NCBI GenBank assembly: GCA_964613915.1
Contig: CAZTIW010000001.1
Coordinates: 123,741-187,740, forward strand
DNA from: an uncultured Thermoanaerobaculia bacterium
GTDB lineage: Bacteria; Acidobacteriota; JBCCFW01
Direction of reading: 5' to 3'
Length of the DNA stretch: 64,000 nucleotides
Below are positions 26,280-61,703 of the stretch, one piece after another; within the stretch, counting starts at the first letter, position 1; each line of letters starts with the position of its first letter. The notes beneath the pieces were generated by a model. It searched no databases. It saw nothing but the letters and a program-made list of their open reading frames with translations, and was not told the origin of the DNA. The position numbers and the translations under genes are program-made.

Positions 26280-26288
26280 GGTACGGAC

Positions 26289-26317: not shown

Positions 26318-26333
26318 GGGGTCGCCGCGCGGC

Positions 26334-28293: not shown

Positions 28294-28436
28294 GCGCCCC
28301 AGCGTAGCCGAGAGCCCGGCGGCCTTGCACGGGTTGGCCACGCCCTCCCCGTGAACACGCCGCCGTTTCCATGCGTGAAGCGCACGTGCTCGCGGAACAC
28401 TCCTCGCTCCAGCGCGAACCGCTCGCGAGGCCCGTC

Positions 28437-32274: not shown

Positions 32275-35200
32275 ATGGGATTGGACGCGGCTGACCGATC
32301 GGCGCGAGACGCCGGTTCGAGCGTGCGTGGCCCGACGAGGTCCCGGGTGGGACCCGGGCTCGAACGCCGCGCGGCGCGTGCGCTCATCGGCGCCCTGCTG
32401 CTCTTGCTCGTTCCTCCTGCGGCGGCCGGGACCTGCGATCCCCCGATCGCGGCCGGCACGCACCATGTTCTCCAGGTCCGCGCGGACGACTCGGTGTGGG
32501 GCTGGGGCGACAACTCCGTCGGCCAGCTGGGCGTGAGCCTGCCCGCGGGCCAGCTGGAGTCGCGCGTGCCGGTGGAGATCGCCGCGCTCCGCGGGCGCGG
32601 CGTGGTGGCCGTCGCCGCGGGGCTGGGACACTCGCTGGCGTTGCTCTCGGACGGCGGCGTTCTCTCGTGGGGCTACAACGCGTACGGACAGCTCGGTCAC
32701 GGAACCAACCGCAACGAGGCGGCGCCCAGGCGCATCGTCGGCCTGCGCAACGTGATCGCGATTGCCGCCGGAGGCTGGCATTCGCTGGCGGTCACCGATG
32801 ACGGCACGACCTGGGCCTGGGGCGCCAACTCGTGGGGACAGCTCGGTGATGGACGAGCGGGCGTGAGCTCGTGGTCGCCCGTCCGCGTCGGCGGGGGCCT
32901 GACCGGCGTGGTGGCGGTCGCCGGAGGTCGCTTGCACTCGCTGGGCCTTCGCGCCGATGGCAGCGTCTGGGCGTGGGGAAGCGACAACAGCGGTGAGTGC
33001 GGCAGCGACGAGGTCACGACCTCAGCGCCGTCGCCCGTGCGCGCCGCCATCACGGATGTCACGAGGATCGCCGCCGGGGCGTCCCACTCGCTCGCCGTCA
33101 CGAGTGATGGCGCCGCGTGGGCCTGGGGATCGGGATCGCTCGGCGAGATCGGCGACGGCGCGCTGCGCGACCAGCCACTGCCGACGCGCGTCACGCTCGC
33201 GGGTCCCGTGCGCGCGATCGCGGGCGGAGGCGCCCACTCCGTGGCCGTCACGATGGACGGCACCGCGTTCGCGTGGGGCTTCGGCGGCAGCGGGCTGCGC
33301 GGTGACGGCACGACCGGCGACGCTCCCGTGCCCGTCGCCGTGACCGGCGTCGTCCGCGCGCGCACGTGTGCGGCCGGCGGCTCGTTCAGCGTCTTCGGGA
33401 TCGGCGACGGCACCGTGCGGACGCTGGGCACCGGCACGGTCGGCACGCTCGGCGACGGCCGTGAGGGCTACCGCGCGCTCGCCCGGGACGTGAGCGCCGG
33501 GCTCGTCGCAAGCGACATCGCCGGCATGGCGGAGGGCTTCATGGCGGTGACGCCCGCGGGCGAGGCCCTCACCTGGGGTTACAACCAGGACGGCCAGCTC
33601 GGTGACGGCACGACGGACCACTCGGCCACGCCCGTCGTGGTCGGCGGCGTTTCCGGCGCCGCGCGCGTGGCTGGCTCGCACGCGGGCTTCGCGCTCCTGT
33701 CCGATCGCACGCTCCGCTCGTGGGGGTTCAACGCCAGCGGACAGCTCGGTGACGGGACCACGGCGTCGAGCGCGAACGCCGGCGCGGTCCTGGACCCTGC
33801 CGATCCCAGCGGCACGCTGACGGACGTCGTCCGCGTGTCGGCGGGGCCCTTCCACGTGCTCGCCGTGAAGGGTGACGGCAGCTGCTGGGGATGGGGTTCG
33901 GGCTTTCACGGCGCGCTCGGCCCGCCGACTCCGGGCGATCGCCTGCTGCCCGCGCGCGTGGCGGATCCCGCGGATCCCACGGGGTTCCTCTCGGGCGTGG
34001 CGGACGTGTCGGCCGGACGCGTCCATTCGCTCGCTCTCATGGCCGACGGGACCGTCCGCGCGTGGGGCAGCAACTGGTACGGACAGCTCGGCGCCGGCCA
34101 GTTCCTGGACGACGACCGCCCGGTCGCGGTGGCCGGCATCGCGGGCGCGACGGCCGTGTCGGCGGGGAGCTTTCACTCCCTCGCGCTCCTCGCCGACGGC
34201 TCGATGCTCTCCTGGGGATCGAACGCGTACGGCCAGCTCGGCAACGGCACCACGCTGGACTGGTTGTCGCCGACGAACGTGAACGCGAGCACGCCGTGCG
34301 TGGCCATCGCCGCCGGCGAGACCTTCTCGCTGGCCCTCACGTCGGCCGGCAACGTTCTGGCCTGGGGCAGCAACTTCACGGGCCAGCTCGGCACCGGCGA
34401 CCGCATCAGCCGCACGCAGCCGACGCTCGTGCTGGACCCGAGCGATCCCAGCGGCCTCTTGAGCGGCATCGTTCGCATCGCGACCTCGGCCGGCGCCGCC
34501 GCCGCGCTCGACGCGAGCGGGCGGATCATCACCTGGGGCAGCAACGCCTACGGGAAGCTCGCCGAGGGCGCGTTCGCCAACGCGACGACGCCGGCGCAAC
34601 CCGACACGGGGAGCCTGCCCGACGCCGACGGCGACGGCGCGTGGGACGCCTGCGACACGTGCCCCCTCGTGCCGGATCCGTCGCAGGAGGACAGGGACCT
34701 CGACGGCGCCGGCGACGCGTGCGATGAGTGCACCGACTCCGACTTCGATGGCTTCGGCGATCCGGGGCACCCGCTCGAGCCATGCGCGATCGACAACTGT
34801 CCCGACGTCGCGAATCCATCGCAGGAGGACGCCGACGGCGACGGCGAGGGCGACGCTTGCGACGCGTGCACCGACACGGACGGCGACGGCTTCGGCGAAC
34901 CCGGCCTCCCCGCCAGCACCTGTCCCCCGGACAACTGCCCCGCCATCCCCAACGACCAGCAGGACCGGGACGGCGACGGGCTCGGCGACGCGTGCGACGC
35001 GTGCACCGACTCCGACTTCGACGGGTTCGGCGATCCAGGCAATCCGGGCGAGCCCTGTCCGGTGGACAACTGTCCCGGCGTCGCGAACCCGTCGCAGGCC
35101 GATGCCGACGGGGATGGCGAGGGAGACGGCTGCGACGCGTGCACCGACACGGATGGCGACGGATTCGGAGACCCGGGGTTCCCGGCGAACGCCTGCCCCG

Positions 35201-35577
35201 CCGACAACTGCCCCGATCTCGTGAACGATCAGCAGGACACCGACGGAGACGGGGCCGGCGACGCCTGCGATCCGTGCGTGGACGATCCGGCCAACACGTG
35301 CGACGACATGCCTCTCCTGCGCCACGGATCCATCAGCATCCGCGCGGTCACGCTCTACCCATGGATCCTGACGGCCGGAGGGGATCCCGTGCTCGATCCG
35401 GCGCGCGACCTGTACCTGTCCGACGTGCGGTGGATGCCGTCGGTGACGGTGCGGGGCGACGCCGCCTTCGTGGGCGAACGCAACCCGGGCGTGATCGTCT
35501 TCTACGAGGTCGTGAACGCCTCCGGGCCGCTGCGCGCGACCAAGGCAGGGAGCGATGTCGTGCTGTCAGGCTGGTAG
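32275..35577 (+). CDS. Large secreted protein with N-terminal RCC1 (beta-propeller) repeats and C-terminal thrombospondin type-3 (Ca-binding DxDxDGxxDxxD) repeats
   Basis: Repeated [12 protein letters not shown] / [12 protein letters not shown] / [10 protein letters not shown] units (RCC1); tandem DADGDGxxDACDxCPxxxNPSQxDxDGDGxGDACDxCTD units (TSP3); signal-like [16 protein letters not shown]. Confidence 0.75.
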
Positions 35578-35876: not shown

Positions 35877-38800
35877 TCACGGCCCGACGCCGGTGCTGCC
35901 GTAGCTCTCGGCTGGCCCGAACGTGCCGTCGGTTCCGCCGTCGCGGACGAGGATGTACACGTCGGTGCCCGCGCGCGGATCGAGGAGCGCGAGCTGCTCG
36001 TCCTGCGGCGAACCGTCGGCGTCCTCGAGCCGCACGCTGGTGAACCCGGGATCCGTGGGCCACGTGCCGGCGCGAGAGAGCGACGGCCGGGCCGTGGACG
36101 CGATCGCCACGTCGTAACGGTCGTGGCACGGGTGGAGGCTCGCCTGCCAGCTGACGTGCAGGCCGCCCGCCTCCTTGCGCACCATGACGAGCTGGACGGG
36201 CGCGTCGGACGGGCAGCCGCCCGACACGACGTCGTGACGCACGAGACGCACGCAGCCCGCGGCGTCCTGGATCTCGAGCTCCACGGTCACCGTCTGCTGG
36301 GGGCCCATCGGGAACGTGAGCGTGGGTCCGGTGCCGTCGGGGATGCCGTCGGCGCCGATGTCCCACGTGAACTGCACGCCGCCGGAGGGGCTCGTGCCGG
36401 TGGCGGTGAGATCCGCCTGGAACGAGCCGGGGCCGAGATAGCTGACCACCGACGTGAAGTCGCCCGTCAGGTAGTCCGGCACGTCAATGGTCACGAACGC
36501 TTGCGCGGAACAGCCCTCGCCGTCCGTGATCGTCACGGTCTCCACGTAACTCCCGGGCGTCAGGACGCCGCGGCCCCGACCCGTGCCGTCATCGAGCAGG
36601 TTCGTGAAGGTGAACGTCCAGTTCCCGTCGCCGCCGCCACCCGTCGCCACGAGGGTCGTGTCGCCGGTGCAGGGATCCACGACCGGCGAGCCGAGCGAGA
36701 GCGTCAGCTCCGGATTGATCGCGATGGGATCAGAGAGTCCCGTCGCGGAGCAACCCGCGGCGTCGGTCAGCGTGACGCGAGCCTGCGTCAGCGTGCCGAA
36801 CGGGAACGCGCCCGTGCCCGTGCCGGCGCCGTCGTCCGCGAGGATGTCCCACGTGAACACGTAGGGACCCACTCCGCCGGCGGCCGTGGCGAGAACCGAA
36901 ACGTCACCGGTGCAGTGGTCAACGACGGGGACCGCGAGCGTCACGGCGAGCTCGGCGTGAACGTCCACCACGACGCTCGTCCGGTGCTCGCATCCGTTCG
37001 AATCGAGGACGGTCAGGGTCGTCGTGGTCGGCCCGATGCCGAAGAAGGTCGTCGGCGGCGGATCGTCCGCGGTCGAGTCCTCCGTCCCGTCACCGTCGAA
37101 GTCCCATGACCACGCCACGATGGTGGCCGGCCCGGCGGCCGACGAGCCACGCCCGTCAAAGTCCACCGGCTCATCCGTGCAGGTCGCGAGGCGGCTGGCG
37201 GCGATCACCGCCGCCGGCGGCAAGGTGACGCGCACGATGCGCATGAGCGTGGACTGCCCGCACGGGTTGGTCACGCGCAGCGTCACCGGGTGGTCGCCGG
37301 CGCTCGCGAACGTCCAGTCGGGATCGGGAACGTCCGAATCCTCCCGGCCGTCGTTGTTGAAGTCCCAGGACCACGCGAGAGGCGGCCCGGGGGACAGGTC
37401 CACGAAGGACACCGTGGCGCCCCCTGGCCCGAGACAGGCGGGCATCGTGAAGTCGAAGTCCGCCACGGGCGGGATGCCGTAGTCTCGGTCGGTGGCCTCG
37501 GCATGCGCGAAGTTCGAGTCCGTCAGGCCGAAGTTGTTGGGCCCGTCCGAGCAGTTGCCGGAGTTCTCGGCACGGACCACGTACGAGTAGAGGAGGCCCG
37601 GCACCGCGGTCGTGTCCGTGTACGTCGTTCCCGTGACTCCGAACGCCAGGAGGGTCGAGGCGTCCGGCGTGAAGCCGGGATCCGTGGATCGGTAGATGAC
37701 GTACGTGCCGCTCCCGCCCAGCCCCCAGCTGATCACGGGATCCCAGTCGAGCCGGATCCCGTCCGTCTCGCAGGGCGCGATGTCGGTCGCGCTCAGGATG
37801 CCGTCGAAGGTCGGAGGCGGGCTGCATCCCACCGTGAACGTCACCTGCCTCGAAGAGATCAGGAAGCCGCACGACGCCAGCCAGGTGGTGCGCAGCGTCC
37901 AGACGCCGCTGCGCGAGTACGTCACGGGCTGGGTCACGAAGCGATCGCCGAGCGTCTCGCCCGAGTAGACGTCCAGGCCGGCCGTGCTCGACGTGACGGC
38001 GCCAGCGGACCACGCGGCGACGGTGCCGTTCATGCGCACGTAGTCCTCGCCCGCGTCGGGCCGGCCGTTGCCGTTGGCGTCGAAGTAGGCCACGTGCTCG
38101 ATGCGCGAGGCGATGATGTCAATGGACGTGGGGTTCGACACGTCCGCATAGGCCACGAGCGCGTCGCCGCTGAGCACGTAGAGGTCCGCTCCCGTGTCGT
38201 TGAGAGACACGCGGGCGCCACCCGAGACGAGATCCCGCATCTCGAAGGTCACCGTGCCCGAGGGCCCGACGTCCACGTAGCTGGCCCCTTGCTTCTCCTG
38301 GAGCTTCACGGTCCAGGTGCCGAGAAGGGGCGCCGGGCCGCCGTCGAAGAAGTCGTCGAGCGCTCCGTTCGAGTAGGGGGCAACGTCCGCGCTGGTGCGG
38401 ACCGCCGTTCCGAGCGCGTCGAGCCACAGGAAGCGATAGGTGCCGCCCCCCGAGCGAAAGGCCAGCACGTAGATGGTCGAGCACTGGCCGAAGAACTGGG
38501 TCGACGGCCGCGCGAAGAGGGGATCGGAGTACGAGAGCATCCCGAACACCGTGATCGTGTCGGTGGCCGTGTCCTGGATGGGCGCAGAGCCCGCGGTGCC
38601 CGTCGTGCGCACGGTGTCCACCTGGCCGTGCGTGGCGCCCGCCGGAATGCGCACGCGCGTGATGAGCGGGAACCTCCCGCCATCGCCAGGAACGGGCCCG
38701 GTGGACGTGATGACGCGCGACTGATCCGGATCGCCGTCGTCGTTCGGATCGTCCATCGTCGCCGTCGCGCTCCCGAGGGTCGAGGTCGTGGCGAGGCCGA

Positions 38801-40388
38801 ACGTGTCCGTGGCGGGCCCGGAGTTGATCAGATCGTGGGGGAAGTAAAGCGTCTTCCCGCGCTGGCCCTTGCCCGAGCGGTCCGGCTGAACCCGGAGCGC
38901 CGTCGCCACCACGCGGATCGTGTCGAGGAGCGTCGCCGTGTTCACGCCATCGCTGACCCAGATGTCCACGTCATCCCGGATGCCGACGGGGGCGCCGACA
39001 GGCACGTTGACGACCAGCACGATGGGCCGGCAGGTCCCGTCCGGAACGGAGCCCACGTCCGGGTCGCCGTCAGCGTCGGTGTCCGACAGCGGCGCTCCGT
39101 CAGCCGGATCGCCGTCACCGTTCGGATCGCTCCAGAACGTGCCCGTCCAGTTGAGGAGCGAGTCGAAGGTCAGGTCGAGCACGGCGGCCGCGCCGCTGTC
39201 GTTGCAGACGCGGTGCGCGAGGCGCGTGGGCGTGCCGGGCGCGCTCAGCGCGTTCCGGTCGGGCCAGATCGTGACCAGGCCGACGCGCACGCGATCCTCG
39301 GTCTGGACGCGCACCGCGGGCTTGTAGCCCGACGCGGCGAAGACCGTGACGACCTCTTCCGTGCCGACGGCCTGCCTCGCCGGGACACCCACGCGCAGCA
39401 CGTAGTTGCGCACCGCTCCCGCCGCCAGCGCGCCGCCATCAACGAAGCCGTTCCTGTTCGCGTCCACTGCGGGAGCGGGGAAGATGTCGCCCGTGTCCGT
39501 CATGTCGCCATCGCCGTTCGCGTCGCGCCCGAGCAGGGCGCCGTCGGACGGATTGCCGTCACCGTTCGGATCGGACCAGATTTCGAGCGCGAAGCCGAGC
39601 CGCGTGCGAAGGATGAGGTCAATGATGTCGGACGCCGTGCCGTCGTTGGTCACGCGGTGGGGAAAGTCCACCGTGCGGCCGGGCGCCGTCCCCTTCGTCG
39701 CGCCGGGGCTCAGCATCACGCCGACGAGGAACGTGTCCAGGAGATCCGTGTTGTCCTGGATGCCGCCCGGCAGGTTCAGGTTGGTGGACAGGGCTGGCTG
39801 CATGAAGATGGGCGTGCCGGCGGCGATGCCGAGCGACGCCCACGTGATCGAGCACTCGAAACCGATGCCGGAGGAGTCCGCGCTCGCGGCGCCGCCGGAG
39901 GTCGTGACGGACGTGCCGAGAGGGCCGGGCATGCTGACGCCATCGCCGCCCATCGGATCGGGAGTGCCCCCGTCGTTGTAGCGGTAGAGCTCGTAGCTGT
40001 TCAGCGACGAGCCGGTGAACTTGAACACCGCCACGCGATCGGTCGCGGCGTGCATCACCCGGTCATGGCCGTAGTCCATGTAGAAGATGGCATTGAACGA
40101 GTTCGTCCCGGACCCGGTCCGCGAGAAGTAGAGGTACAGGTTGGTGGCGTCCCACGTGAACGCGACGCCCCGCTCGTCGCGCTGGGCCTGCGACGGCATG
40201 TCCGGATCGCCCTGCGCCGCCGATCGATCGGCGACCTTCTGGTCCCGGTCCAGCAGGACCTCCGTCCAGTCGTCAAGATTGCCGTCAATGGTGATCGTCC
40301 GCAGCGTCTTGGCGTCGGCCGGCCCGGGCAGGGCCAGCGCCAGCAGCAGCGCCGCGACAGCGGCTGGGGTCAGGGTTGGGCGAGTCAT
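35877..40388 (-). CDS. Giant (1503 aa) secreted cell-surface protein with PKD/Ig-like and Ca-binding (DPNGDGDP) repeats
   Basis: Signal MTRPTLTPAAVAALLLALALPGPADA; repeated SDPNGDGxPxDG motifs; multiple about 90-aa beta-sandwich-like units (VTLTDAAGCSA..., FTFTN...). Confidence 0.75.
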   Translation of the reverse strand: MTRPTLTPAAVAALLLALALPGPADAKTLRTITIDGNLDDWTEVLLDRDQKVADRSAAQGDPDMPSQAQRDERGVAFTWDATNLYLYFSRTGSGTNSFNAIFYMDYGHDRVMHAATDRVAVFKFTGSSLNSYELYRYNDGGTPDPMGGDGVSMPGPLGTSVTTSGGAASADSSGIGFECSITWASLGIAAGTPIFMQPALSTNLNLPGGIQDNTDLLDTFLVGVMLSPGATKGTAPGRTVDFPHRVTNDGTASDIIDLILRTRLGFALEIWSDPNGDGNPSDGALLGRDANGDGDMTDTGDIFPAPAVDANRNGFVDGGALAAGAVRNYVLRVGVPARQAVGTEEVVTVFAASGYKPAVRVQTEDRVRVGLVTIWPDRNALSAPGTPTRLAHRVCNDSGAAAVLDLTFDSLLNWTGTFWSDPNGDGDPADGAPLSDTDADGDPDVGSVPDGTCRPIVLVVNVPVGAPVGIRDDVDIWVSDGVNTATLLDTIRVVATALRVQPDRSGKGQRGKTLYFPHDLINSGPATDTFGLATTSTLGSATATMDDPNDDGDPDQSRVITSTGPVPGDGGRFPLITRVRIPAGATHGQVDTVRTTGTAGSAPIQDTATDTITVFGMLSYSDPLFARPSTQFFGQCSTIYVLAFRSGGGTYRFLWLDALGTAVRTSADVAPYSNGALDDFFDGGPAPLLGTWTVKLQEKQGASYVDVGPSGTVTFEMRDLVSGGARVSLNDTGADLYVLSGDALVAYADVSNPTSIDIIASRIEHVAYFDANGNGRPDAGEDYVRMNGTVAAWSAGAVTSSTAGLDVYSGETLGDRFVTQPVTYSRSGVWTLRTTWLASCGFLISSRQVTFTVGCSPPPTFDGILSATDIAPCETDGIRLDWDPVISWGLGGSGTYVIYRSTDPGFTPDASTLLAFGVTGTTYTDTTAVPGLLYSYVVRAENSGNCSDGPNNFGLTDSNFAHAEATDRDYGIPPVADFDFTMPACLGPGGATVSFVDLSPGPPLAWSWDFNNDGREDSDVPDPDWTFASAGDHPVTLRVTNPCGQSTLMRIVRVTLPPAAVIAASRLATCTDEPVDFDGRGSSAAGPATIVAWSWDFDGDGTEDSTADDPPPTTFFGIGPTTTTLTVLDSNGCEHRTSVVVDVHAELAVTLAVPVVDHCTGDVSVLATAAGGVGPYVFTWDILADDGAGTGTGAFPFGTLTQARVTLTDAAGCSATGLSDPIAINPELTLSLGSPVVDPCTGDTTLVATGGGGDGNWTFTFTNLLDDGTGRGRGVLTPGSYVETVTITDGEGCSAQAFVTIDVPDYLTGDFTSVVSYLGPGSFQADLTATGTSPSGGVQFTWDIGADGIPDGTGPTLTFPMGPQQTVTVELEIQDAAGCVRLVRHDVVSGGCPSDAPVQLVMVRKEAGGLHVSWQASLHPCHDRYDVAIASTARPSLSRAGTWPTDPGFTSVRLEDADGSPQDEQLALLDPRAGTDVYILVRDGGTDGTFGPAESYGSTGVGP

Positions 40389-44278: not shown

Positions 44279-45430
44279 TCAGTTGTTCAGATCTTCCTCG
44301 TGCAGCTCCACGCGGATGCCATGGCCCGCCAGATCGCGAAGCACGCGCGCGACCAGATCGGCATCGTGACCGAAGCGCTCGGGCGGCAGCACCCCCGTCG
44401 CCTCGAGATCGCCGCCGAGCAGGAGCCGCGCGAAGGTCGTGCAGGTCAGGCCGGTCGTGCGGGCCATGGACGACGCGCCGGTCTTGCGGTCCATGAAGTC
44501 CACGAGATCCCACTGCACCATGCGCCGCTGCTTGCGGCGGACGCCCTCGGCCTGGATGCGCAGCACCGTGACGTCCTCCTCGCCCGGCAAGTAGCGCCAC
44601 TGCCGGAACAGGAGCGTGCTCGTGAGCTCGCGCGGCGTGACCTCGACGCCTCCGCACGTGACGACGTCCCGCGAGAGGAAGCCGGCCGACTTGAGCGCGC
44701 GCATGAGGTGATAGTGCCCGGCATGCCTGAGGGTTCGCTCGCGCAGGTTGGGGACCCCGAGCGTCGTCGCGAGCGAGCGCAGGCCGTCGGTCGTCGTGGC
44801 CTCGAGCGGACCGACGGCCGGGAAGTCCACCATCTCGGAGTCGGCGAGCGGCTCGGCGTTGACCACGCAGCCACCGGCGACGATGCGGGCGGGGCGCGTG
44901 TACTCCTCGATGACGTCCTCGGGCGAGAACGGCGCCTTGTAGCGGAAGGGCTCCGTGGGACGCCGCGGGATGCCGCCCACGAGGATCTCGACGCGATCGC
45001 AGTCGTCGAGCATGGCCACCGATCGCGCGGCGAGCAGGTTCGACAGGCCCGGGGCGACGCCGCAGTCCACGATGGCGGTCAGTCCGCGGTCGCGGGCGAA
45101 GCCGTCGAGCGCGAGAGCGTCCTCGGGCATGAACGAGATGTCCACGATGTTCTTGCCGGCTTCGAGCACGGCCTCGAGCGTCTGGTAGCCGAAGCGGCTC
45201 GGCAGCGCGCCCACGACGAGCGCGAAGTCCCCCACGAGATCGCGCAGGCGCGAAGCGTCCGCGACGTCGGCGTGGAGCGTCGTGACCCGCCCGCCGGACC
45301 GGGACGACGCGCGACCGAGGGCCTCCTCGGACACGTCCGCCACGGTCACGTCGTGCTCCCCGTCGCTCGCAAGCTCGGAGGCGATGAATGATCCGATGAG
45401 ACCGGAGCCGAGGACGAGGATGCGTGCCAT
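44279..45430 (-). CDS. Saccharopine dehydrogenase-like NAD(P)-binding oxidoreductase
   Basis: N-terminal Rossmann MARILVLGSGLIGSFIA and the saccharopine-DH C-terminal domain; ATG at 45430. The upstream 830 nt of the 661-aa ORF is antisense to the DUF692 gene. Confidence 0.7.
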   Translation of the reverse strand: MARILVLGSGLIGSFIASELASDGEHDVTVADVSEEALGRASSRSGGRVTTLHADVADASRLRDLVGDFALVVGALPSRFGYQTLEAVLEAGKNIVDISFMPEDALALDGFARDRGLTAIVDCGVAPGLSNLLAARSVAMLDDCDRVEILVGGIPRRPTEPFRYKAPFSPEDVIEEYTRPARIVAGGCVVNAEPLADSEMVDFPAVGPLEATTTDGLRSLATTLGVPNLRERTLRHAGHYHLMRALKSAGFLSRDVVTCGGVEVTPRELTSTLLFRQWRYLPGEEDVTVLRIQAEGVRRKQRRMVQWDLVDFMDRKTGASSMARTTGLTCTTFARLLLGGDLEATGVLPPERFGHDADLVARVLRDLAGHGIRVELHEEDLNN

Positions 45431-45514
45431 GCTGTGCCGATCATCCGTCGGGCTGCGCGAGCGCGCAAGGACCCCATGCCCGGCTGAAGCTCCGCACGCC
45501 ACGGTGTCCCGACC

Positions 45515-46387
45515 ATGAGCCCCTCCTTCTTCGACCGCGTGACGACGCTGCCGCGGCTCGGCCTGGGCATCTCCACCGAGTACGGCGCTGGCTGCCACGG
45601 ACTCGACATCGGGCAGTTGCGGGCGATGCGGCCCGATCTCGTCGGTTTCCTGGAAATCGGGGTCGATCTCGAGCGCAGCCTCGACGAGGACGCCCGCGCC
45701 TGGATCGCGGCCGCCCTCCCGGTCACGTACCACTACCTCGACCTCAACCTCGAGGAACCCGAGGATCTGGACGCCGCCTGGGTGCGGGACGCCTCGGCGC
45801 TCGCGCGCGAATGCGGCGCCGCCTGGATGTGCGGCGACGCCGGCCTCTGGCACGTGGGTCCGCGCGACCGAGGCCACGGCACGCTCATGCCGCCGATCCT
45901 GCATGCCGACTCGGCGCGATCCGTCGCGACGAGCGTCGCCCGCCTGCGCGAGCAGTCGGGGCTCGAGGTGCTTCCCGAAAACCCGCCGGCTCACGCGTAC
46001 CTCGGTCCGATGCACGTCCTCGAGTACTTCGCGATGGTGGCCGAGCTCGCGGACTCGGGGCTCCTCCTCGACGTCGCACACGTGGCCGCGTATCAGGCCG
46101 CGATGGGGCGCGACGCGCTCGACGGCTTCGACGCGTTCCCGTTCGATCGGGTCGTCGAGATTCACGTCGCGGGCGGCAGCGGCTTCGTGCATCGCGGGGC
46201 TTCCTTCGTCGAGGATGATCACGGGCTCGACGTTCTCCCGGCGACGTGGGCGATTCTCGAGCATGTCGTCGCGCGCGCGACCAACCTGCGCGCCGTCGTC
46301 GTGGAGGCCGAGCGCAACGAGCTGTCCGCCGTCATCCCTCTCTTCGAGCGCGTCCGCGACGCGGTGGCGCCGGCGCTCGCGCCGTGA
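45515..46387 (+). CDS. DUF692 / MNIO (multinuclear non-heme iron oxidase, MbnB/TglH/BufB family)
   Basis: Family signatures LEVLPENPPAHAY (ENPSxY-like), LLLDVAHVAAYQAAMG and VVEIHVAGG at the correct spacing. Confidence 0.7.
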   Translation: MSPSFFDRVTTLPRLGLGISTEYGAGCHGLDIGQLRAMRPDLVGFLEIGVDLERSLDEDARAWIAAALPVTYHYLDLNLEEPEDLDAAWVRDASALARECGAAWMCGDAGLWHVGPRDRGHGTLMPPILHADSARSVATSVARLREQSGLEVLPENPPAHAYLGPMHVLEYFAMVAELADSGLLLDVAHVAAYQAAMGRDALDGFDAFPFDRVVEIHVAGGSGFVHRGASFVEDDHGLDVLPATWAILEHVVARATNLRAVVVEAERNELSAVIPLFERVRDAVAPALAP

Positions 46388-47205
46388 TCGATCACCGGCG
46401 CATCCAGCGCACGCTGTTTCGCATGCAGCACGACGCGCGCTTCGCCGAGCGCCTGCGCGCGCGCGACGACGACGCGATCGCGTCCACGGCTCTGGACGCG
46501 GACAGCCTCGCCCTGCTGCTCGCCGCCCCGGTCGCGGCCGTCGAGGCCGACCCGGGCGGCAAGCGCCGGGCGCAGTTCCTGCGCAACGTGTCGTCCGAGC
46601 ACGCGCTGACCTGCGCGCGCGCAGGCGCCGAGATCGTCGAGTCGTTCACGACGTCGCCGGAGTTCCACGCGGCGATGCGCGAGGATCGCTCGCTACCGCT
46701 CGCGTTTGCCGACCACGCGGTGCGGTGGAGCGCCGCGACCGAAGACGCGCTCCTGCGCGCGCTCGCCCGCGTCGAGCAGGCGATGGCGAGCCTGAGACGC
46801 GGTCCGTTCGCGCGCGTCGGCGCGCCCCCTGGCGGCCTCGCTCTGGGAGAGCGCGCGGAGATCCTCTCGCTCCCCGGCGGAACGATCGCGGCCGCCGCCC
46901 GCCTGCGGCAGGCGCTGGATGCGAACGCCGCGGTGCCGGGCGACCTCGACATCGGCGTGGACGCGGGCGAGTTCGCCCTCGTGCTGGGGGGGCCGCGGCC
47001 GAGCCCGCATCAGCTCGCGTCCGTCTCGATCGAGCGACTCAACGCGCTCGCGGGCGAGTTGCTCTCTCTCTGCGCGGGCCCCGCCACCGCCGCCGACCTC
47101 GCCGCCTTCCGAACCCGCCACGAGGTCACTGAGCCCGAGCTCGCCGCGTTCACGGCGGGACTGATCGCCGACGGGGCCCTCGCGCGCCACACGGACGCGC
47201 CCTGA
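46384..47205 (+). CDS. DUF2063-like partner protein (MbnC/BufC-type), translationally coupled to the MNIO gene
   Basis: The GTG at 46384 overlaps the MNIO stop (GTGA). Size and position match the usual DUF692 partner; there is no independent motif evidence. Confidence 0.5.
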   Translation: MIDHRRIQRTLFRMQHDARFAERLRARDDDAIASTALDADSLALLLAAPVAAVEADPGGKRRAQFLRNVSSEHALTCARAGAEIVESFTTSPEFHAAMREDRSLPLAFADHAVRWSAATEDALLRALARVEQAMASLRRGPFARVGAPPGGLALGERAEILSLPGGTIAAAARLRQALDANAAVPGDLDIGVDAGEFALVLGGPRPSPHQLASVSIERLNALAGELLSLCAGPATAADLAAFRTRHEVTEPELAAFTAGLIADGALARHTDAP

Positions 47206-47288
47206 CGCTGCTCCGGGCCCCGGACGCGCTACCTCTGGCTGGGCGCCGAGGGCGTGACAGGCCGTGGCTCCGGACATACATTCACGCC

Positions 47289-49538
47289 ATGCTGGCTCCC
47301 GCGCGCCCCCGCCGCGCCCTGTTCTGGGCGCTGGCCCTGCTTCTGTCCACGTCCATGGCGCGGGGCGGATCGACTTCCGGCACGGAGTTCTGGACGTGCT
47401 GGATGGAGTCGTTCGACCGGACCAACGACTTCGGCCTCGCCGTCGCCAATGACGGCCTGTCGCCCGCGACGGTGACCGTCTCCTCCCCCACGCGGCAGCT
47501 CGCGAGCGCGGTCATCGCTCCGGGCGCGGTCAACGTGTTCCGCTTCGACCCGGCGGACCGCAACGCGCCGCTCATGCTCGTCGGCACGCGCAAGGCCATG
47601 GCGTCCTATCGCATCAACTCGGACGTTCCCGTCACCGTGTATCAGTTCAACACGCTCCTCAAGAGCGCTGTCACGCGCAACCACACTCACGACGGGGTGA
47701 CCGTGCTGCCGGTGACGGCGCTCGGCCCCCGCTACCGCATCAGCTCCTGGCCCCAGGTCGAGTTCACCGGCCAGCCGGGGCGGGGCCTCCTCGCGGTCGT
47801 GGCGTTCGCGGCGCTTCCGACCACGGTGACGATCACGCCGACGGCGCCGACCCTCGCGGGCGACATCGGCGCATCGCCCGCCGGTACGCCGATCGTCGTG
47901 ACGCTGCAGCGAGGAGAAGTCCTGCAACTCGCCAGCGACCTGCTGGGATCGGACCTCACGGGGACCGTCGTGACGGCGGACAGACCGATCGCCGTGTTCG
48001 GCGGATCCGTCTGCTCGCAGGTCCCCGCGGGCACGCGGTTCTGCGATCATCTCGAGGAGCAGTACTTCCCGACGCAGGCGTGGGGAAAGGAGTTCCTCGC
48101 CGTCAAGTCGAAGGCACGGGGGACCATCCCCGACTACTGGCGCGTGCTGGCGCAGCGCGATGGAACCTCCGTCACGCTCGCGCCCGATCCGATCGGCGGC
48201 GGCCCGCATGCGCTGGCGGCGGGAGAGTTCCTGCAGTTCTCGAGCGTGTCGGATGTCGTCGTGCAGGGCTCGCTCCCGCTGCAGGTCACGCAGTACTTCG
48301 CGGGCTCGACCTACTCGGGCCTCAACACCGGGCCCGGCGACCCGTCGCTCATCCTCACGGTCCCCACCGAGCAGTTCGAGACGGACTTCCTCTTCTACGT
48401 TCCGGACCTGTTCTCGGACGACAACGTCATCCTGGTGAAGCCGGCCGGCGCGACCTTCCTGCTGGACGGGATGCAGATCCCGCAGGCGAGCTTCGCGGCG
48501 ATCGGCTCCTCCGGATTCGAGAAGGCGATCGTGCCCGTGGCGGACGGCGTGCATTCGGCGATCGCGAGCGAGCCGTCCATGGTGTACGTGTTCGGCTTCG
48601 AGCGCGACACGTCGTACGGCTACTACGCGGGCGGAAGGCCGGAGCCGATCGGCTCGGCCATCACGTGCGACATCACGGCGACCACGCCGGGGCCGTGCGA
48701 CGGCGGCTGGATCACGCTCGACGCGACCGGGAGCCTCGGCACGCCCCCGCTCAGGTACACGTGGACGCCGGTGACGCCGGGTCTCGTGATCAGCTCGCCG
48801 ACAGCCGGCGTGACCCGCGCCCAGCTCCCGGCCGGATCGAGTTCCGTCGTCGGCGTGACGATCTCGAACAACGAGGACGCCGTGACGTGCTGGGTCCAGC
48901 TCGCGCCGCCTCCCGATCCGGCCCCGCCGCCGGTCGTGACCTGCCTTGCCCGCATCACCGTCGAGGCGACGCAGGCCGGCGGCGAGGTCGTCGTCGTGAC
49001 GGCGACCGCGAGCGCGTCATGCCCTCCCGTGGACCTCGTCAACAACCGGACGAGCGGTGGCGGGGACGCGACGGACTTCTACCCGTGCGGCACGACGAAC
49101 GTGCGGTTCACCGCGACCGACGCCATCGGCCAGAGCACGACGTGCACGACGCGCGTCGAGGTGGGCCAGTCATGGATCCCGGCGGAGGTGAGCGGCCTGC
49201 CGTTCGGCGTGCCCCTGCGCGTGAGCAAGCTCGCCGGGAACGCCGAGCTCCGGCTGACGTTCGCCGACCTCGACCAGCCCCTGCTGCGGTACAACGCGTA
49301 CGCCGGCACGGTGCCGGCGACGCTCATGAGCGGCTACGACCACGCGCCGATCGCCTGCTCGTTCGCGCCGGCCAGCATCGCGCCCGGCGTGCAGGAGCGA
49401 CGCATCCCGTTCGTGCCGGGCATCAATCGCTACTTCCTCGTCTCCGCGAGCAATTGCGGAGACGAAGGCACGCGCGGTTACCGCTCCGACCGCCTGGAGC
49501 GCCCCGCCCGCCCGAGCGACTGCGGCCTCGCGCGCTGA
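47289..49538 (+). CDS. Secreted protein with an IgGFc-binding-protein N-terminal-like domain and HYR/Ig-like Cys-containing domains
   Basis: Signal MLAPARPRRALFWALALLLSTSMA. Blocks GDPSLILTVPTEQF, FLFYVPD and VYVFGFE resemble the bacterial IgGFc_binding family; later units (TCDITATTPGPCDGG..., VTCWVQLAPPPD...) are HYR-like. Confidence 0.55.
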   Translation: MLAPARPRRALFWALALLLSTSMARGGSTSGTEFWTCWMESFDRTNDFGLAVANDGLSPATVTVSSPTRQLASAVIAPGAVNVFRFDPADRNAPLMLVGTRKAMASYRINSDVPVTVYQFNTLLKSAVTRNHTHDGVTVLPVTALGPRYRISSWPQVEFTGQPGRGLLAVVAFAALPTTVTITPTAPTLAGDIGASPAGTPIVVTLQRGEVLQLASDLLGSDLTGTVVTADRPIAVFGGSVCSQVPAGTRFCDHLEEQYFPTQAWGKEFLAVKSKARGTIPDYWRVLAQRDGTSVTLAPDPIGGGPHALAAGEFLQFSSVSDVVVQGSLPLQVTQYFAGSTYSGLNTGPGDPSLILTVPTEQFETDFLFYVPDLFSDDNVILVKPAGATFLLDGMQIPQASFAAIGSSGFEKAIVPVADGVHSAIASEPSMVYVFGFERDTSYGYYAGGRPEPIGSAITCDITATTPGPCDGGWITLDATGSLGTPPLRYTWTPVTPGLVISSPTAGVTRAQLPAGSSSVVGVTISNNEDAVTCWVQLAPPPDPAPPPVVTCLARITVEATQAGGEVVVVTATASASCPPVDLVNNRTSGGGDATDFYPCGTTNVRFTATDAIGQSTTCTTRVEVGQSWIPAEVSGLPFGVPLRVSKLAGNAELRLTFADLDQPLLRYNAYAGTVPATLMSGYDHAPIACSFAPASIAPGVQERRIPFVPGINRYFLVSASNCGDEGTRGYRSDRLERPARPSDCGLAR

Positions 49539-57140: not shown

Positions 57141-58466
57141 GTGCACGTGAAACTCAGCAAGGGCCTCGAGCTTCCGATGGGCGGCGCACCCGAGCAGGTC
57201 GTCCGCCCCGGCCCCGCCGTGCGCGAGGTCGCCGTGCTGCCCGGCGATCACCCGGGGATGAGGGCCCGCGCCTGCGTCGCCGAGGGGGATCGCGTGCGGC
57301 GCGGCGAGCCGGTGGTCGTCGATCGCCGCCATCCGGAACTCGTCCTCACGTCGCCGGCGTCGGGCATCGTCACGACCCTGATGCTCGGCGAGCGCCGCCG
57401 GCTCGCCGCCGTGGTCATCGCCCTCGACGGTGACGCCGAGCACGAGCTTCCCGCGCGCTCGCCGTCGGCTCTCGCGTCGCTCGACGGTGCGGCCGTCGCG
57501 GACTTCCTGCGCGCCTCGGGGCTCTGGTCGGCCATCCGGACGCGACCGGCCGGACGCCTCGTCGATCTCCGAGCGGAGCCCGCGGCGATCCTGGTGACCG
57601 CGATGGACACCAACCCGCTCGCGGCGGATCCACGCGTGGCGATGTCGGGCCGCGACGACGACTTCGCCACGGGCCTCCTGCTTCTCGCGCAGCTCACGCG
57701 CGGGCCGATCGTCATCTGCCACGCCCCCGGCCCTCCGCTCCCCATCCCCGCGCACGATCGTCTCGTGGCCGCGTGCTTCGAGGGCCCGCATCCGGCAGGT
57801 CTTCCCGGCACGCACGTTCACTGGCTCTGCCCCGTCGGCGAAGGCCGCGTCGCATGGCATGTCGGCGTGCAGGATGTCCTCGCGCTCGGCCGCACGTTCA
57901 CGACGGGGCGTCCGGATGTCGATCGCGTGATCTCCATCGCGGGTCCGCTCGTCCGCGAGCCGCGGCTGGCACGCGTGCCGCTCGGCGCCAGCGTGAGCGA
58001 CCTTGCTGGCGAGGACGCCCTCGCCGACGGCGCTCGCGTCATCGCGGGCTCGCCGCTCTCGGGCCGTCACGCGACGGGCGAGGCTGCCTGGCTCGGCCGG
58101 CATCACGCGCAGGTCTGCGTCCTCGGCGAACCCGGCCACGAGGCGGCGAGAGAGAGGCCCTTCACGGCGGCGCGCCGCCCGCTCCCTCGCGGGCCGCGTG
58201 GCTTCACGACCAGCCTGCACGGCCGCCCGACCGGCTTCGTCCCCACCGATCTCTTCGATGCCGTCTTCCCGCTCGAGATCCCCGCCACGCCGCTGCTGCG
58301 CGCGCTCGCCGCCGGCAACGTCGAGACCGCGGTCGAACTGGGCTGCCTGGACCTCGACGAGGAGGACCTCGCGCTCCTGAGCTTCGTGTGTCCGGCGAAG
58401 CACGATCACGCCGCCAACCTGCGCGCGATCCTCGACCGCATCGCGAGCGAGCTCTCGCATGGCTGA
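57141..58466 (+). CDS. nqrA: Na+-translocating NADH:quinone oxidoreductase subunit A
   Basis: The N-terminus VHVKLSKGLELPMGGAPEQ matches NqrA MIKIKKGLDLPIAGAPEQ; length fits. Confidence 0.85.
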   Translation: MHVKLSKGLELPMGGAPEQVVRPGPAVREVAVLPGDHPGMRARACVAEGDRVRRGEPVVVDRRHPELVLTSPASGIVTTLMLGERRRLAAVVIALDGDAEHELPARSPSALASLDGAAVADFLRASGLWSAIRTRPAGRLVDLRAEPAAILVTAMDTNPLAADPRVAMSGRDDDFATGLLLLAQLTRGPIVICHAPGPPLPIPAHDRLVAACFEGPHPAGLPGTHVHWLCPVGEGRVAWHVGVQDVLALGRTFTTGRPDVDRVISIAGPLVREPRLARVPLGASVSDLAGEDALADGARVIAGSPLSGRHATGEAAWLGRHHAQVCVLGEPGHEAARERPFTAARRPLPRGPRGFTTSLHGRPTGFVPTDLFDAVFPLEIPATPLLRALAAGNVETAVELGCLDLDEEDLALLSFVCPAKHDHAANLRAILDRIASELSHG

Positions 58467-59604
58467 GCGTCACGGCCCTGCGACGATCGGCGCGCCGCAC
58501 GTGAGAGACGCCCAGAGCGTGGCCTCCATGACGTCATGCCTGCTGGTCGCGCTCCTGCCCTGCCTGCTGGTCGGGCTCTGGAACACGGGCAGGCAGGCCT
58601 TCACGGGACTGTCGTCGCTGCCTCCGGGCGAGACGACGGGCTGGCGTCTTGCTCTCTTTCACCGTCTCGAACTCGAGCAGGCCGCGGGATGGGCGGCCAC
58701 GCTGGCGCTCGGCGCGCTGCACGTCCTGCCCCTTCTCGTCGTCGCCATCGCGGCGGCGCTCGCGTGGGAACACCTGTTCGCCCGCCTGCGGCGCCGGCAG
58801 GCCGGCGAGGGCGCGGCCGCGGCCGCCGTCATCTTCACGCTCCTGCTGCCGGCAGCCACCCCGCTCCCGGAAGCCGCCTTCGGGATGAGCTTCGGCATGG
58901 TCTTCGGCCGCCTCATCTTCGGAGGCGTCGGCCGCACGTTCCTGCACCCCGCCGTCGTCGGCCTCGCGTTCCTCGCCGTGTCGCGCACCTCGCCGCCGCC
59001 CGGCGCGGCGCTCTTCCCGGGCCTGCGCGGATACACCGGCACGGACGCGTTCGCGCAGGCCGCCGCGCGCGGGCCGAGCGCGCTTGGCGAGAGCGGCCTC
59101 GAATGGCTGGACGCGTTCCTGGGCATGGAGCCCGCCAGGATCGGCGAGTCGTCGGTCATCGCCTGCCTGCTCGGCGCCGCATGGCTCGTCCACCGGCGCG
59201 CGGCCTCGTGGCAGGTCATGGCCGGCGCCCTCATCGGGGCCGTCGCCGCCAGCGTCCTCTGGAACGTCGTCGAACGCCCGGCGGCAGCGCCGGCGCTGCC
59301 AGCGCACTGGCATCTCGTGCTCGGCGGCTTCGCCTTCGTGGCCGTGTTCGTCGCCACGGATCCACCGAGCACCGGCTCGACGCCGGCTGGCCGGTGGATC
59401 GCCGGCCTGCTCGTCGGTACGCTCGTCGTGATCCTGCGCCTCGGCCACCCGGACCACCCGGACGGCGTGATCCCCGCCGTGCTCCTCGCGAGCGTCGCGG
59501 CGCCCCTGATCGATCACGCCGTGACGCGGTGGGCGGTGCGACGCCGCAGGCGGCGGTCCGCCAGCGCCCTCGCGGGACTCCAGGAAAGGACGGCACGTGG
59601 CTGA
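58459..59604 (+). CDS. nqrB: Na+-NQR subunit B
   Basis: FGMVFGRLIFGGVGRTFLHPAVVGLAFL matches NqrB; polytopic. Confidence 0.85.
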   Translation: MAERHGPATIGAPHVRDAQSVASMTSCLLVALLPCLLVGLWNTGRQAFTGLSSLPPGETTGWRLALFHRLELEQAAGWAATLALGALHVLPLLVVAIAAALAWEHLFARLRRRQAGEGAAAAAVIFTLLLPAATPLPEAAFGMSFGMVFGRLIFGGVGRTFLHPAVVGLAFLAVSRTSPPPGAALFPGLRGYTGTDAFAQAAARGPSALGESGLEWLDAFLGMEPARIGESSVIACLLGAAWLVHRRAASWQVMAGALIGAVAASVLWNVVERPAAAPALPAHWHLVLGGFAFVAVFVATDPPSTGSTPAGRWIAGLLVGTLVVILRLGHPDHPDGVIPAVLLASVAAPLIDHAVTRWAVRRRRRRSASALAGLQERTARG

Positions 59605-60394
59605 GAACACCCGAGGCAGCGCCGGAGCCCCGAAGGACACGCGCGCGCGCGCCATCCTGGTCGTCAGCCTCGTGGCGCTGGCCTGCGCCACGGTCGTGTC
59701 GGCGACCGCCATGCTTCTCGCTCCCGCGCGCGAGGGCAATCGGGCCGCCGAGAAGGACGCCCTGCTCCGCGGCCTTCTCGCGAGCGTCCCCGGCGTGAGC
59801 GAACTCGTGGGCGGCGCCGAAGGCCGCTTGCAGGCTCGCGTCGTGGACCTGGGCAGCGGCCAGTCCGCGCCGGCCGACGACGAGTCGGCGCTCGCTCCCG
59901 CGATGCAGGTCGCGGACGTGGCGATTCCCGAGTCCGTGGACGTCGCCGGTCTCAAGATGCGTCCGCAGCGAGCGGTCGTGTACGTCGTCGAGCGCGACGG
60001 GAGGCCGGCGCTGATCATCCTGCCCGTCTCGGGTCGCGGGTATGCCTCCCTCCTGTCGGGGTATCTCGCGCTGGAGGGGGACGCGAAGACGGTCGTCGCG
60101 CTGACGATCGCCGATCAGGCCGAGACGCCCGGAATCGGCACGAAGATCCTGGACCCCGCCTGGAGCGGCCTGTGGAAGGGCAAGACCGCGTTCGCCCCTG
60201 ACGGCACCGTGCGCCTCCACGTCGCCTCGGGCAAGGTGGACCCCGCCTCCCCGGACGCCCGCCACGCCGTGGACGGCATCACGGGAGCCACGCGCACGAC
60301 GCAAGGCGTGACGAACATGCTGCGTTACTGGCTCGGTGATCACGGGTTCGGCCCCTATCTCGCCCGCATGCGGGCGGAGAGCGCGCGGCCGTGA
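59597..60394 (+). CDS. nqrC: Na+-NQR subunit C (FMN-binding)
   Basis: Single N-terminal TM; FMN attachment motif DGITGATRTTQGV. Confidence 0.85.
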   Translation: MAENTRGSAGAPKDTRARAILVVSLVALACATVVSATAMLLAPAREGNRAAEKDALLRGLLASVPGVSELVGGAEGRLQARVVDLGSGQSAPADDESALAPAMQVADVAIPESVDVAGLKMRPQRAVVYVVERDGRPALIILPVSGRGYASLLSGYLALEGDAKTVVALTIADQAETPGIGTKILDPAWSGLWKGKTAFAPDGTVRLHVASGKVDPASPDARHAVDGITGATRTTQGVTNMLRYWLGDHGFGPYLARMRAESARP

Positions 60395-61642: not shown

Positions 61643-61703
61643 CGGAGCCGGGGAGGCAGCCACGCTCGAACTCGCGTTCAGCATCCTGATCTTCACCGGC
61701 GTC

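Follow-up and report, generated by a model that had tools for sequence, protein, structure and literature searches.

To our knowledge, what an MNIO does has in each case investigated to date been worked out via the substrate gene adjoining the enzyme gene. The locus described here raises the question of what such an enzyme acts on when it is accompanied by a partner gene and by no substrate gene. It is located in a window of 64,000 nucleotides (the whole stretch of DNA that was analysed) and comprises the following features:

45515..46387, + strand: MNIO (DUF692) enzyme gene, 290 aa, recognised by its PF05114 match
45830..45895, + strand: clade-signature loop CGDAGLWHVGPRDRGHGTLMPP, enzyme residues 106-127, recognised by near-invariance in 31 sequences
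46384..46387, + strand: GTGA start/stop overlap (translational coupling), read from the sequence itself
46384..47205, + strand: partner gene, 273 aa, DUF2063-like fold, 'PME-type 2', from the AF2 model and Foldseek
46390..46446, + strand: most conserved partner segment DHRRxQRxLFRMQxDxxFA, residues 3-21, from the 37-sequence alignment
46831..47193, + strand: predicted partner C-terminal beta/alpha domain, residues ~150-270, RRE/winged-helix-like, from AF2 secondary structure

The partner gene starts with the GTG at 46384, which overlaps the TGA stop codon of the enzyme gene (46385-46387), and this start is backed by the N-termini of homologues (MIDHRR...) and by a 273-aa database protein. The spacers around the pair measure 84 bp on the upstream, divergent side (45431-45514) and 83 bp on the downstream side (47206-47288), and the gene calls, spacing and GTGA coupling given in the earlier, sequence-only reading were confirmed. 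The neighbouring genes code for a saccharopine dehydrogenase-like protein, a Na/H exchanger, GGT and an IgGFc_binding protein, as well as a FadB-like fatty-acid oxidation protein, as judged from its sequence.

The product of the ORF 45515-46387 had been assigned to DUF692/MNIO, with an HMM mismatch named as the outcome that would speak against it. No mismatch occurred, as the protein matches Pfam PF05114 (MbnB_TglH_ChrH) over residues 39-268 with an E-value of 4.7e-24 and 85.5 bits (cutoff 25). It misses the cutoffs of the NCBIfam equivalogs widely, with 71.6 bits of 310 for BufB, 64.5 of 400 for ApyH, 55.7 of 360 for HvfB and 20.3 of 600 for ChrH. According to its AF2 model (pLDDT 90.7), the enzyme is a xylose-isomerase-like TIM barrel resembling MbnB and TglH, and the top nine Foldseek matches of the model are all MNIOs (TglH, 3bww and MbnB; E 1e-14 to 1e-9, TM 0.65-0.80), the best folds being TglH 8hci_B (E 1.3e-14, TM 0.71) and MbnB 7dz9 (TM 0.72-0.80). 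None of the residues H73, H113, E155, D186, H189, H217, D235/H236 and E264 varies among 31 clade members, and HMMER aligns them with the metal-ligand columns of MbnB, which we take to be iron ligands per the published MbnB structures, with His189 standing at the position of an Asn ligand of MbnB; judging from this alignment, the predicted ligand set for the two or three iron ions of an MNIO is complete. The loop CGDAGLWHVGPRDRGHGTLMPP, almost all positions of which are invariant across 31 sequences of 59-73% overall identity, is an insertion relative to MbnB in the HMMER alignment and the least confident stretch (pLDDT 56-73) of an otherwise confident AF2 model, and may function as a substrate or lid loop.

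The label DUF2063, given to the partner in the sequence-only reading, holds for the fold and not for family membership. The window partner is without any Pfam match at E <= 0.1, none of the 37 family members (the window protein and 36 homologues) matches DUF2063 (PF09836) at E <= 1, no sequence match was found in NCBIfam or the PDB, and the 37-sequence profile gave no sequence-level link to DUF2063 or any PDB chain. However, the AF2 model of the partner (pLDDT 95.2) has two significant PDB matches in Foldseek, both of them MNIO partners, namely TglI (8hi7_A, E 6e-4, TM 0.50, prob 1.0) and NGO1945 (3dee, E 5e-3, prob 1.0), followed by MbnC with a weak E-value of 4.7, so the protein is DUF2063-like in fold only. 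In the sections of Antoine et al. 2025 considered here, 'PME-type 2' proteins are those encoded directly after the MNIO gene, lacking a DUF2063 signature and structurally related to NGO1945 (3dee) or TglI (8hi7), and the window partner fits this definition with its GTGA overlap, lack of a DUF2063 match and prob 1.0 folds.

The Foldseek alignment to the two-domain TglI and NGO1945 spans both domains of the partner. The N-terminal helical domain of the AF2 model contains the motif DHRRxQRxLFRMQxDxxFA, in which Q8, R9, L11, R13, M14 and Q15 are invariant and H4, R5, F12, D17, F20 and A21 near-invariant in 37 sequences; by analogy with TglHI, this segment is a putative MNIO interface. The C-terminal domain, confidently predicted to consist of three to four strands and four helices, looks RRE/winged-helix-like in the model, and weak HTH_IclR matches were obtained for 3/37 partner homologues.

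Sequence scores place the pair in an uncharacterised MNIO clade with a sharp boundary: its full-length members score 289-345 bits, and the next full-length MNIO follows at 132 bits and 33% identity. Enzyme identity across phyla is 55-73%, and the mean column identity, 66% in the enzyme and 53% in the partner, suggests that both are under purifying selection. A genome scan limited to two peptide patterns, one of which is CGDAGLWH from the loop, revealed carriers in at least 252 of about 185,000 species genomes, mainly of Myxococcota and Planctomycetota, a frequency at which the clade appears to be accessory and not core. The carriers are hundreds of soil and water bacteria, including the cultured Nannocystis radixulma, N. 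punicea (complete genome CP114040) and Paraliomyxa miuraensis.

The comparison drew on 84 non-redundant loci, which represent at least 5 phyla, and on crude gene calls based on ORFs and GC3. Pairing or fusion with the partner is obligate in the clade: the partner follows the enzyme directly in 77 of the 80 loci having downstream sequence, and the partner HMM finds a copy beside the MNIO in 76/84 loci plus one divergent copy, leaving L064, L069 and L077 with no recognisable partner nearby. The two are fused in-frame into one protein in 11 loci, while in most of the 65 unfused ones the MNIO ORF extends 3-9 nt past position 1 of the partner model. One Planctomycetota fusion, the ORF of locus L016, has 587 aa. 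Of the ten best representatives at 50% identity, eight have both domains in one chain of 421-632 aa. The literature search found no description of an orphan Myxococcota/Planctomycetota MNIO clade or of MNIO-partner fusions, and the sections of Antoine et al. 2025 considered describe neither a clade-wide lack of precursors nor enzyme-partner fusions.

No plausible precursor ORF is present in the 84-bp and 83-bp spacers. By inspection, the upstream spacer holds one start-to-stop ORF, of 3 codons, and the downstream spacer none; an out-of-frame 73-aa ORF (47254-47475) begins at a GTG of the latter and runs into the next gene. The sequence-only reading had allowed for a precursor just outside the spacers, and the small-ORF scan of the whole window gave no candidate, with no Cys-rich, signal-peptide-type small ORF in the intergenic space of the 64 kb. 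The short Cys-rich or signal-peptide ORFs with coding-like GC3 that do occur in the window are merely antisense shadows of large genes.

Neighbours in the 84 loci were grouped by clustering every ORF not shorter than 25-30 aa in a range of ±5-8 kb, both with a low-complexity filter and without one. The commonest family, in both counts a large paralogous signalling family (kinase/sensor-like), was found in at most 14 of the 84 loci in the coding-filtered count or 19 in the unfiltered all-ORF count, and no neighbour in the 84 loci is conserved beyond lineage-specific synteny. On inspection of every locus, the short same-strand ORFs located just upstream of the MNIO gene or just downstream of the partner gene are mutually unrelated, and no small precursor-like ORF is conserved on either side in this set. 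The upstream saccharopine dehydrogenase gene, considered as a conserved partner, is absent from every other locus. The sole recurring associated gene, lineage-specific and present in about 8-10 loci, codes for a P450; in a Myxococcota sub-lineage it lies directly upstream of the MNIO gene in the same orientation, in about 8 loci as the only operon partner, and the window has no P450. The lack of a linked precursor gene thus extends from the spacers and the window to all 84 loci in several phyla, and both the missing adjacent precursor and the new MNIO context suggested earlier are borne out, while the maturase-type module of a translationally coupled MNIO and partner is supported as well.

Leader peptidase, exporter and tailoring genes are absent among the window neighbours, and no conserved protease, transporter/exporter or immunity gene was seen near the comparison loci. 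With its housekeeping-type neighbours, such a setting is unlike a natural-product cluster.

Among the known systems, TglH-TglI of the Pseudomonas syringae 3-thiaglutamate/pearlin pathway (8HCI, 8HI7) is the best solved-structure match for both window proteins, and TglI, likewise 'PME-type 2', also has no Pfam DUF2063 signature. Nevertheless, the identity to the window proteins is only 14-19%, and the invariant loop of 22 residues is peculiar to the clade. TglHI has the precursor TglA as well as TglB, a PEARL enzyme, in its cluster, whereas neighbours of this type are absent in the window and all 84 loci. The TIM barrel of MbnB from the methanobactin system matches that of the enzyme and the ligand columns align, but MbnC resembles the partner only weakly, and mbn operons have the MbnA precursor gene adjacent.

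BufB-BufC and HvfB-HvfC, the DUF692 + DUF2063 pairs for bufferins and for HvfA of Haemophilus, share the gene order with the window pair, enzyme before partner, BufB and HvfB give the best and the third NCBIfam score of the enzyme, and the predicted two-domain architecture of the partner, helical plus RRE, is like that of NGO1945; still, their cutoffs are far above the window scores and the DUF2063 HMM does not match the partner. In bufferin operons, as described in the parts of PMC12452194 considered, there is a Sec-signal precursor gene directly upstream and often DoxX or sigma/anti-sigma genes, none of which are found at the window pair. ApyH, which acts with ApyI and the P450 ApyO in the aminopyruvatide system, is the second NCBIfam match and has a PME-type 2 partner as the window enzyme does, and a P450 gene accompanies the pair in the Myxococcota sub-lineage. 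Aminopyruvatide and biphenomycin-type MNIO clusters, however, carry a precursor and further tailoring genes, and the window pair has neither. A 276-aa protein of Plesiocystis pacifica (WP_006975235), model D of the uncharacterised 'PME-type 2' group in the sections considered of Antoine et al. 2025, shares the taxon family (Nannocystaceae), length and predicted helical plus RRE architecture and probably belongs to the window partner family.

It had also been suggested that the substrate is the product of the gene immediately downstream (47289-49538), a 749-aa IgGFc_binding/HYR protein with 13 Cys and a Sec-type signal peptide, which is encoded on the same strand 83 bp from the pair. Protein-sized MNIO substrates are indeed accepted in the literature (PMC12452194, in the parts considered), and HvfA and long bufferins are examples of entire proteins that MNIOs modify. 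However, an IgGFc_binding homologue beside the pair was found in 0/82 other non-redundant loci, and the region contains a single sigma-70-like promoter match (0.0 expected), located in the 83-bp spacer just before the ATG of this gene. Given that none of the other loci compared has this protein beside the pair and that its gene is preceded by a separate promoter-like site, it is a very unlikely substrate, the more so as the precursor gene usually lies upstream of the MNIO gene in characterised systems and PME-type 2 partners have so far been observed with signal-peptide-less precursors (PMC12452194, same parts). Even less credible is that the pair is what remains, no longer functional, of a RiPP cluster after loss of the precursor; the lack of a precursor, protease or transporter near the window pair would fit, but both ORFs are intact with an invariant ligand set in the enzyme, and decay would not leave the same precursor-less arrangement in place in 84 loci of different phyla, where the sequences are strongly conserved and the genes have fused repeatedly.

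The ordinary housekeeping neighbours and the lack of a conserved protease, transporter or immunity gene leave room for a non-RiPP role. The clade might make no natural product at all and carry out constitutive modification of a conserved cellular protein, or non-ribosomal or small-molecule oxidation; with a small molecule as substrate, the partner would serve as a structural subunit and not as a leader-peptide reader. We regard this as conceivable though not probable: the conservation of the enzyme across phyla, its frequent fusion with the partner, the location amid unrelated genes (L/F-transferase-, GST-, gamma-carbonic-anhydrase-, lytic-transglycosylase- and MoaA-like, by eye), the absence of a conserved protease or exporter and the P450 as the only operon partner in about 8 Myxococcota loci are in its favour, but all characterised MNIOs act on a ribosomal peptide or protein, the partner retains the two-domain architecture of the peptide-binding TglI and NGO1945, and the pattern-limited scan places the clade in only a small part of the species genomes. 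That this is the first MNIO system outside any natural-product cluster, a stand-alone, often single-chain module of iron oxidase and reader in Myxococcota, Planctomycetota and allied phyla which modifies cellular protein(s) encoded elsewhere or a non-ribosomal substrate, is a bolder proposal that we consider rather doubtful.

It seems quite reasonable to suggest, and we hold it to be fairly likely, that the pair is a self-contained TglHI-like heterodimeric oxidative maturase acting on a peptide or protein, as suggested by the predicted fold of the partner, the gene for which would lie elsewhere in the genome. The TIM-barrel MNIO with its full iron-ligand set would be the catalytic half, the N-terminal helical domain of the partner would dock on it, and the C-terminal RRE/winged-helix-type domain would capture a ribosomally made peptide or protein. 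The substrate gene would be unlinked to the enzyme genes, in contrast to every characterised MNIO system known to us, and there may be several scattered ones. The reaction expected is O2-dependent side-chain oxidation, most likely of Cys as in most MNIOs.

The well-delimited clade, carried by at least 252 species genomes, thus has the hallmarks of an active enzyme-partner pair, yet no linked substrate. If the substrate is found, it may reveal new MNIO chemistry or a RiPP class with precursors in trans, or else indicate that MNIOs also serve ordinary protein modification or metabolism, and the natural fusions and cultured carriers make the question experimentally approachable.

The pair lies in a region with a G+C content of 72%, and its immediate surroundings are as follows:

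44279-45430, - strand: saccharopine-dehydrogenase-like gene, divergent, upstream, 84 bp from the MNIO gene
45515-46387, + strand: MNIO enzyme gene, 290 aa, Pfam PF05114 match
46384-47205, + strand: partner gene, 273 aa, GTG start
47289-49538, + strand: IgGFc_binding protein gene, 749 aa, 83 bp downstream of the partner gene

The sequence itself shows the partner start GTG 46384 overlapping the MNIO stop TGA 46385-46387, in agreement with the translational coupling proposed in the sequence-only reading. This start was chosen because the N-termini of 36 homologues (MIDHRRxQR...) and a 273-aa database entry agree with it, and GTG 46246, taken from a mechanical listing, was rejected on the same grounds. 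The spacers of 84 and 83 bp, within one base pair of the 85 and 84 bp reported earlier, hold no usable ORF by inspection: the upstream one contains one 3-codon ORF, and in the downstream one a GTG opens a 73-aa out-of-frame ORF overlapping the next gene. The window as a whole also gave no small ORF resembling DUF2282, bufferins or MbnA. The pair indeed has no adjacent precursor.

Beyond these genes the window consists of ordinary chromosome, which encodes, among others, fumarase, formate dehydrogenase and proteins of the RCC1, PKD and ankyrin types. Other features of the window (the toxin-antitoxin-like genes and the Nqr operon were judged by sequence only):

7568-9631, + strand: molybdopterin oxidoreductase / formate-dehydrogenase-type gene with a single in-frame TGA at 7967-7969
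9713-11530: NuoF-like gene, following the formate-dehydrogenase-type gene
11302-12639: NuoG-like Fe-S gene, following the NuoF-like gene
14509-14790: RelE-like gene
18032-19447: large ankyrin-BRCT protein
25651-26046 and 26043-26312, - strand: Doc/Phd-like pair
27649-28341, - strand: stand-alone FGE-sulfatase-domain protein
32275-35577: large RCC1-repeat protein
35877-40388: large PKD protein
57141-62879, + strand: apparently complete six-gene Nqr (Na+-translocating NADH:quinone oxidoreductase) operon

The in-frame TGA sits in the motif IDSCNRT*HAPSVVGL, at the position where formate-dehydrogenase-type enzymes carry Cys or selenocysteine, so the gene probably encodes a selenoprotein and is not a pseudogene. 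The large RCC1-repeat, PKD and ankyrin-BRCT proteins are consistent with a genome of Myxococcota type. Two patches (~12600-18000 and ~22600-26400) have a G+C content of 0.62-0.68 versus 0.72, contain few GC3-supported genes, hold the small toxin-antitoxin-like pairs and may have been acquired horizontally.

The 290-aa enzyme matches PF05114 (MbnB_TglH_ChrH, MNIO/DUF692) at 85.5 bits (E 4.7e-24; the cutoff is 25 bits), which bears out its earlier assignment to DUF692, and it falls far under the cutoffs of all NCBIfam models that represent characterised MNIOs:

BufB equivalog: 71.6 bits, cutoff 310
ApyH equivalog: 64.5 bits, cutoff 400
HvfB equivalog: 55.7 bits, cutoff 360
ChrH equivalog: 20.3 bits, cutoff 600

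A profile built from 31 relatives (59-73% identity, mean column identity 66%) aligns to MbnB (7DZ9), TglH (8HCI) and the Haemophilus DUF692 structure 3BWW, and the invariant H73, H113, E155, D186, H217, D235/H236 and E264 fall on what we take to be the MbnB iron-ligand columns, with the Asn ligand position of MbnB occupied by an invariant His (H189) in the clade. The best nine PDB matches of the AlphaFold model (pLDDT 90.7) are all MNIOs; TglH ranks first (E 1.3e-14, TM 0.71), with 3BWW and MbnB next (TM up to 0.80). Judging from these residues and the predicted fold, the enzyme looks active. A clade-specific, almost invariant 22-residue stretch, CGDAGLWHVGPRDRGHGTLMPP (residues 106-127), is aligned by HMMER as an insertion relative to MbnB and is the sole low-confidence part of the model (pLDDT 56-73); we infer that these residues form a mobile loop, either a substrate loop or a lid.

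The 273-aa partner has no Pfam or NCBIfam match, and its sequence gives only chance-level matches in the PDB, to P450s (E 0.02-0.09), while a 37-sequence profile of its family gives none there. Its AlphaFold model (pLDDT 95.2, pTM 0.90) consists of a helical N-terminal domain (residues ~1-139) and a beta/alpha C-terminal domain (~150-270). Foldseek against the PDB returned only two matches with E < 0.01, namely the TglH partner TglI (8hi7_A; E 6e-4, prob 1.0, TM 0.50) and the archetypal DUF2063 + RRE protein NGO1945 (3dee; E 5e-3, prob 1.0, TM 0.63 on target), with MbnC as a weak third. The DUF2063 label of the sequence-only reading is therefore right as to the fold and wrong as to the sequence family, PF09836 matching none of the 37 members. 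According to Antoine et al. 2025 (PMC12452194), "PME-type 2" denotes partners that are missed by the DUF2063 signature and structurally related to NGO1945 and TglI, which, by its predicted structure, is exactly the class of the window partner. One of the four PME-type 2 example models in that text is a 276-residue protein of Plesiocystis pacifica, a member of the Nannocystaceae like several clade carriers, and it is probably a member of the same partner family.

A search of 5.8 billion proteins gave more than 1,500 matches at E <= 1e-5, the best 120 of which are 61-73% identical to the enzyme. In a set of 15 billion proteins reduced to 50%-identity representatives, the full-length members of the clade reach 289-345 bits and the next full-length MNIO outside it 132 bits (33% identity). 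The clade is large and, by these scores, sharply delimited. With one genome taken per species, a pattern scan showed that at least 252 genomes encode a relative, mostly MAGs of Myxococcota and Planctomycetota, including Nannocystis, Enhygromyxa, Paraliomyxa and Bradymonadia, with some Eisenbacteria and Blastocatellia; three carriers are cultured (Nannocystis radixulma, N. punicea and Paraliomyxa miuraensis).

For comparison, 84 non-redundant loci were used (83 fetched plus the window). The partner HMM matches directly 3' of the MNIO gene in 76 of them, a divergent copy is present in one further locus (L085), and four loci stop at the MNIO gene, so that the partner is present in 77 of the 80 loci that extend downstream of the MNIO gene. 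The majority of unfused loci show the same stop/start overlap as the window, the partner starting 3-9 nt before the MNIO ORF ends. Natural single-chain fusions are common in the clade: the two genes form a single continuous ORF in 11 loci, eight of them full length at about 560-630 aa, and among the ten best cluster representatives eight are single chains of 421-632 aa that contain both domains. Fusions and the genes that intervene in two exceptional loci are:

L016, L018, L019, L034, L039, L047, L050, L055 (full length) and P0162-P0170: single-chain fusions, about 520-632 aa
L014, 989-1462 from MNIO start, - strand: secreted-protein gene, 2 Cys, homologous to the L056 copy
L056, ~867-1541 from MNIO start, - strand: secreted-protein gene, homologous to the L014 copy

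Gene fusion is strong evidence that enzyme and partner work as one unit. They are obligately linked with three exceptions: L014 and L056, both from Planctomycetota, in which an opposite-strand gene for a ~157-aa secreted protein lies between them, and L089, in which the partner is 4.3 kb away beyond a kinase-like gene. Other MNIOs, at 30-34% identity, are 476-646 aa long, and their C-terminal regions are mostly unrecognised by the partner HMM.

The two proteins differ in conservation, with a mean column identity of 66% for the enzyme versus 53% for the partner and pairwise identities between phyla of 55-70% versus 30-45%; the most conserved part of the partner is an invariant N-terminal segment, DHRRxQRxLFRMQxD. 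This pattern fits a fixed chemistry paired with a recognition module that co-evolves.

Gene calls around six homologues gave completely different neighbours. When the ORFs from ±5-8 kb around the pair (minimum length 25-30 aa) were all clustered across the 84 loci, no linked substrate gene was found. Apart from the pair and antisense shadows, the commonest family occurs in 14 loci (coding-filtered) or 19 (unfiltered) and resembles Ser/Thr kinases or sensor proteins, which form a very large group of paralogues in the carrier phyla; all other families occur in at most 10 loci each, reflecting lineage-specific synteny. Short same-strand ORFs directly 5' of the MNIO or 3' of the partner gene are rare, mutually unrelated and not Cys-rich. 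The orphan state is thus a conserved property of the whole clade. Only one operon partner recurs, a soluble P450 encoded directly upstream in about eight Myxococcota MAGs that are related to each other; the window has no such gene, and in L012 a convergent P450 lies just past the partner.

L024, L025, L027, L028, L032, L035, L041, L070; about -1250 to 0, same strand: P450 (398-402 aa), 0-59 bp from MNIO start

The order P450-MNIO-partner recalls the aminopyruvatide and biphenomycin clusters, but it comes without a precursor.

The sequence-only reading had named the downstream secreted protein as a possible substrate. This 749-aa protein has an N-terminus resembling a signal peptide; it contains an IgGFc_binding domain (E 4e-69) and also matches HYR weakly. 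Its spacer contains GTGACA-17-TACATT at 47254-47282 (+), the only sigma-70-like match in 45300-47450 (0.0 expected in shuffles) in a consensus scan that is weak for this phylum; the match suggests separate transcription and ends 7 nt before the ATG, so that transcripts from such a promoter would be leaderless or almost so. Neither this protein nor the upstream dehydrogenase has a homologue in the other loci compared. The substrates found so far with PME-type 2 partners have no signal peptide, as far as the available part of PMC12452194 goes, whereas this protein looks Sec-exported. With no counterpart beside the pair elsewhere, its own promoter-like site and a Sec-type N-terminus, it is unlikely to be the substrate.

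We consider it reasonably probable that the pair is a maturase acting on a peptide or protein substrate encoded in trans, a feature that would distinguish this clade. If TglHI, MbnBC and BufBC are a guide, the helical domain of the partner would bind the MNIO TIM barrel, presumably through the invariant segment as the interface, and the C-terminal winged-helix/RRE-type domain would hold the recognition sequence of the substrate, placing the target residue, most often Cys in the superfamily, at the multi-iron centre for a putative O2-dependent oxidation. As the main rival we see a function unrelated to natural products, with a cellular protein or a small molecule as its target. The flanking genes are housekeeping-like (by eye, L/F-tRNA-protein transferase-, glutathione transferase-, gamma-carbonic-anhydrase-, lytic transglycosylase- and MoaA-like) and a protease or exporter is absent, which makes this a serious possibility, albeit one we hold to be rather unlikely.

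The maturase interpretation, and with it the location and orphan status originally proposed for the module, stands. In the available portions of the literature, all characterised MNIOs (MbnB, TglH, ChrH/DybH, ApyH, BufB, HvfB, MovX, PbsC and the Streptomyces std enzyme) have a precursor in the same cluster, whereas the clade has none linked, and the accessible text of PMC12452194 describes neither the clade nor its systematic lack of a precursor nor the fusions. What is added here is that the orphan state spans a whole clade, previously undescribed as far as those sources extend, in which enzyme and partner are frequently fused.
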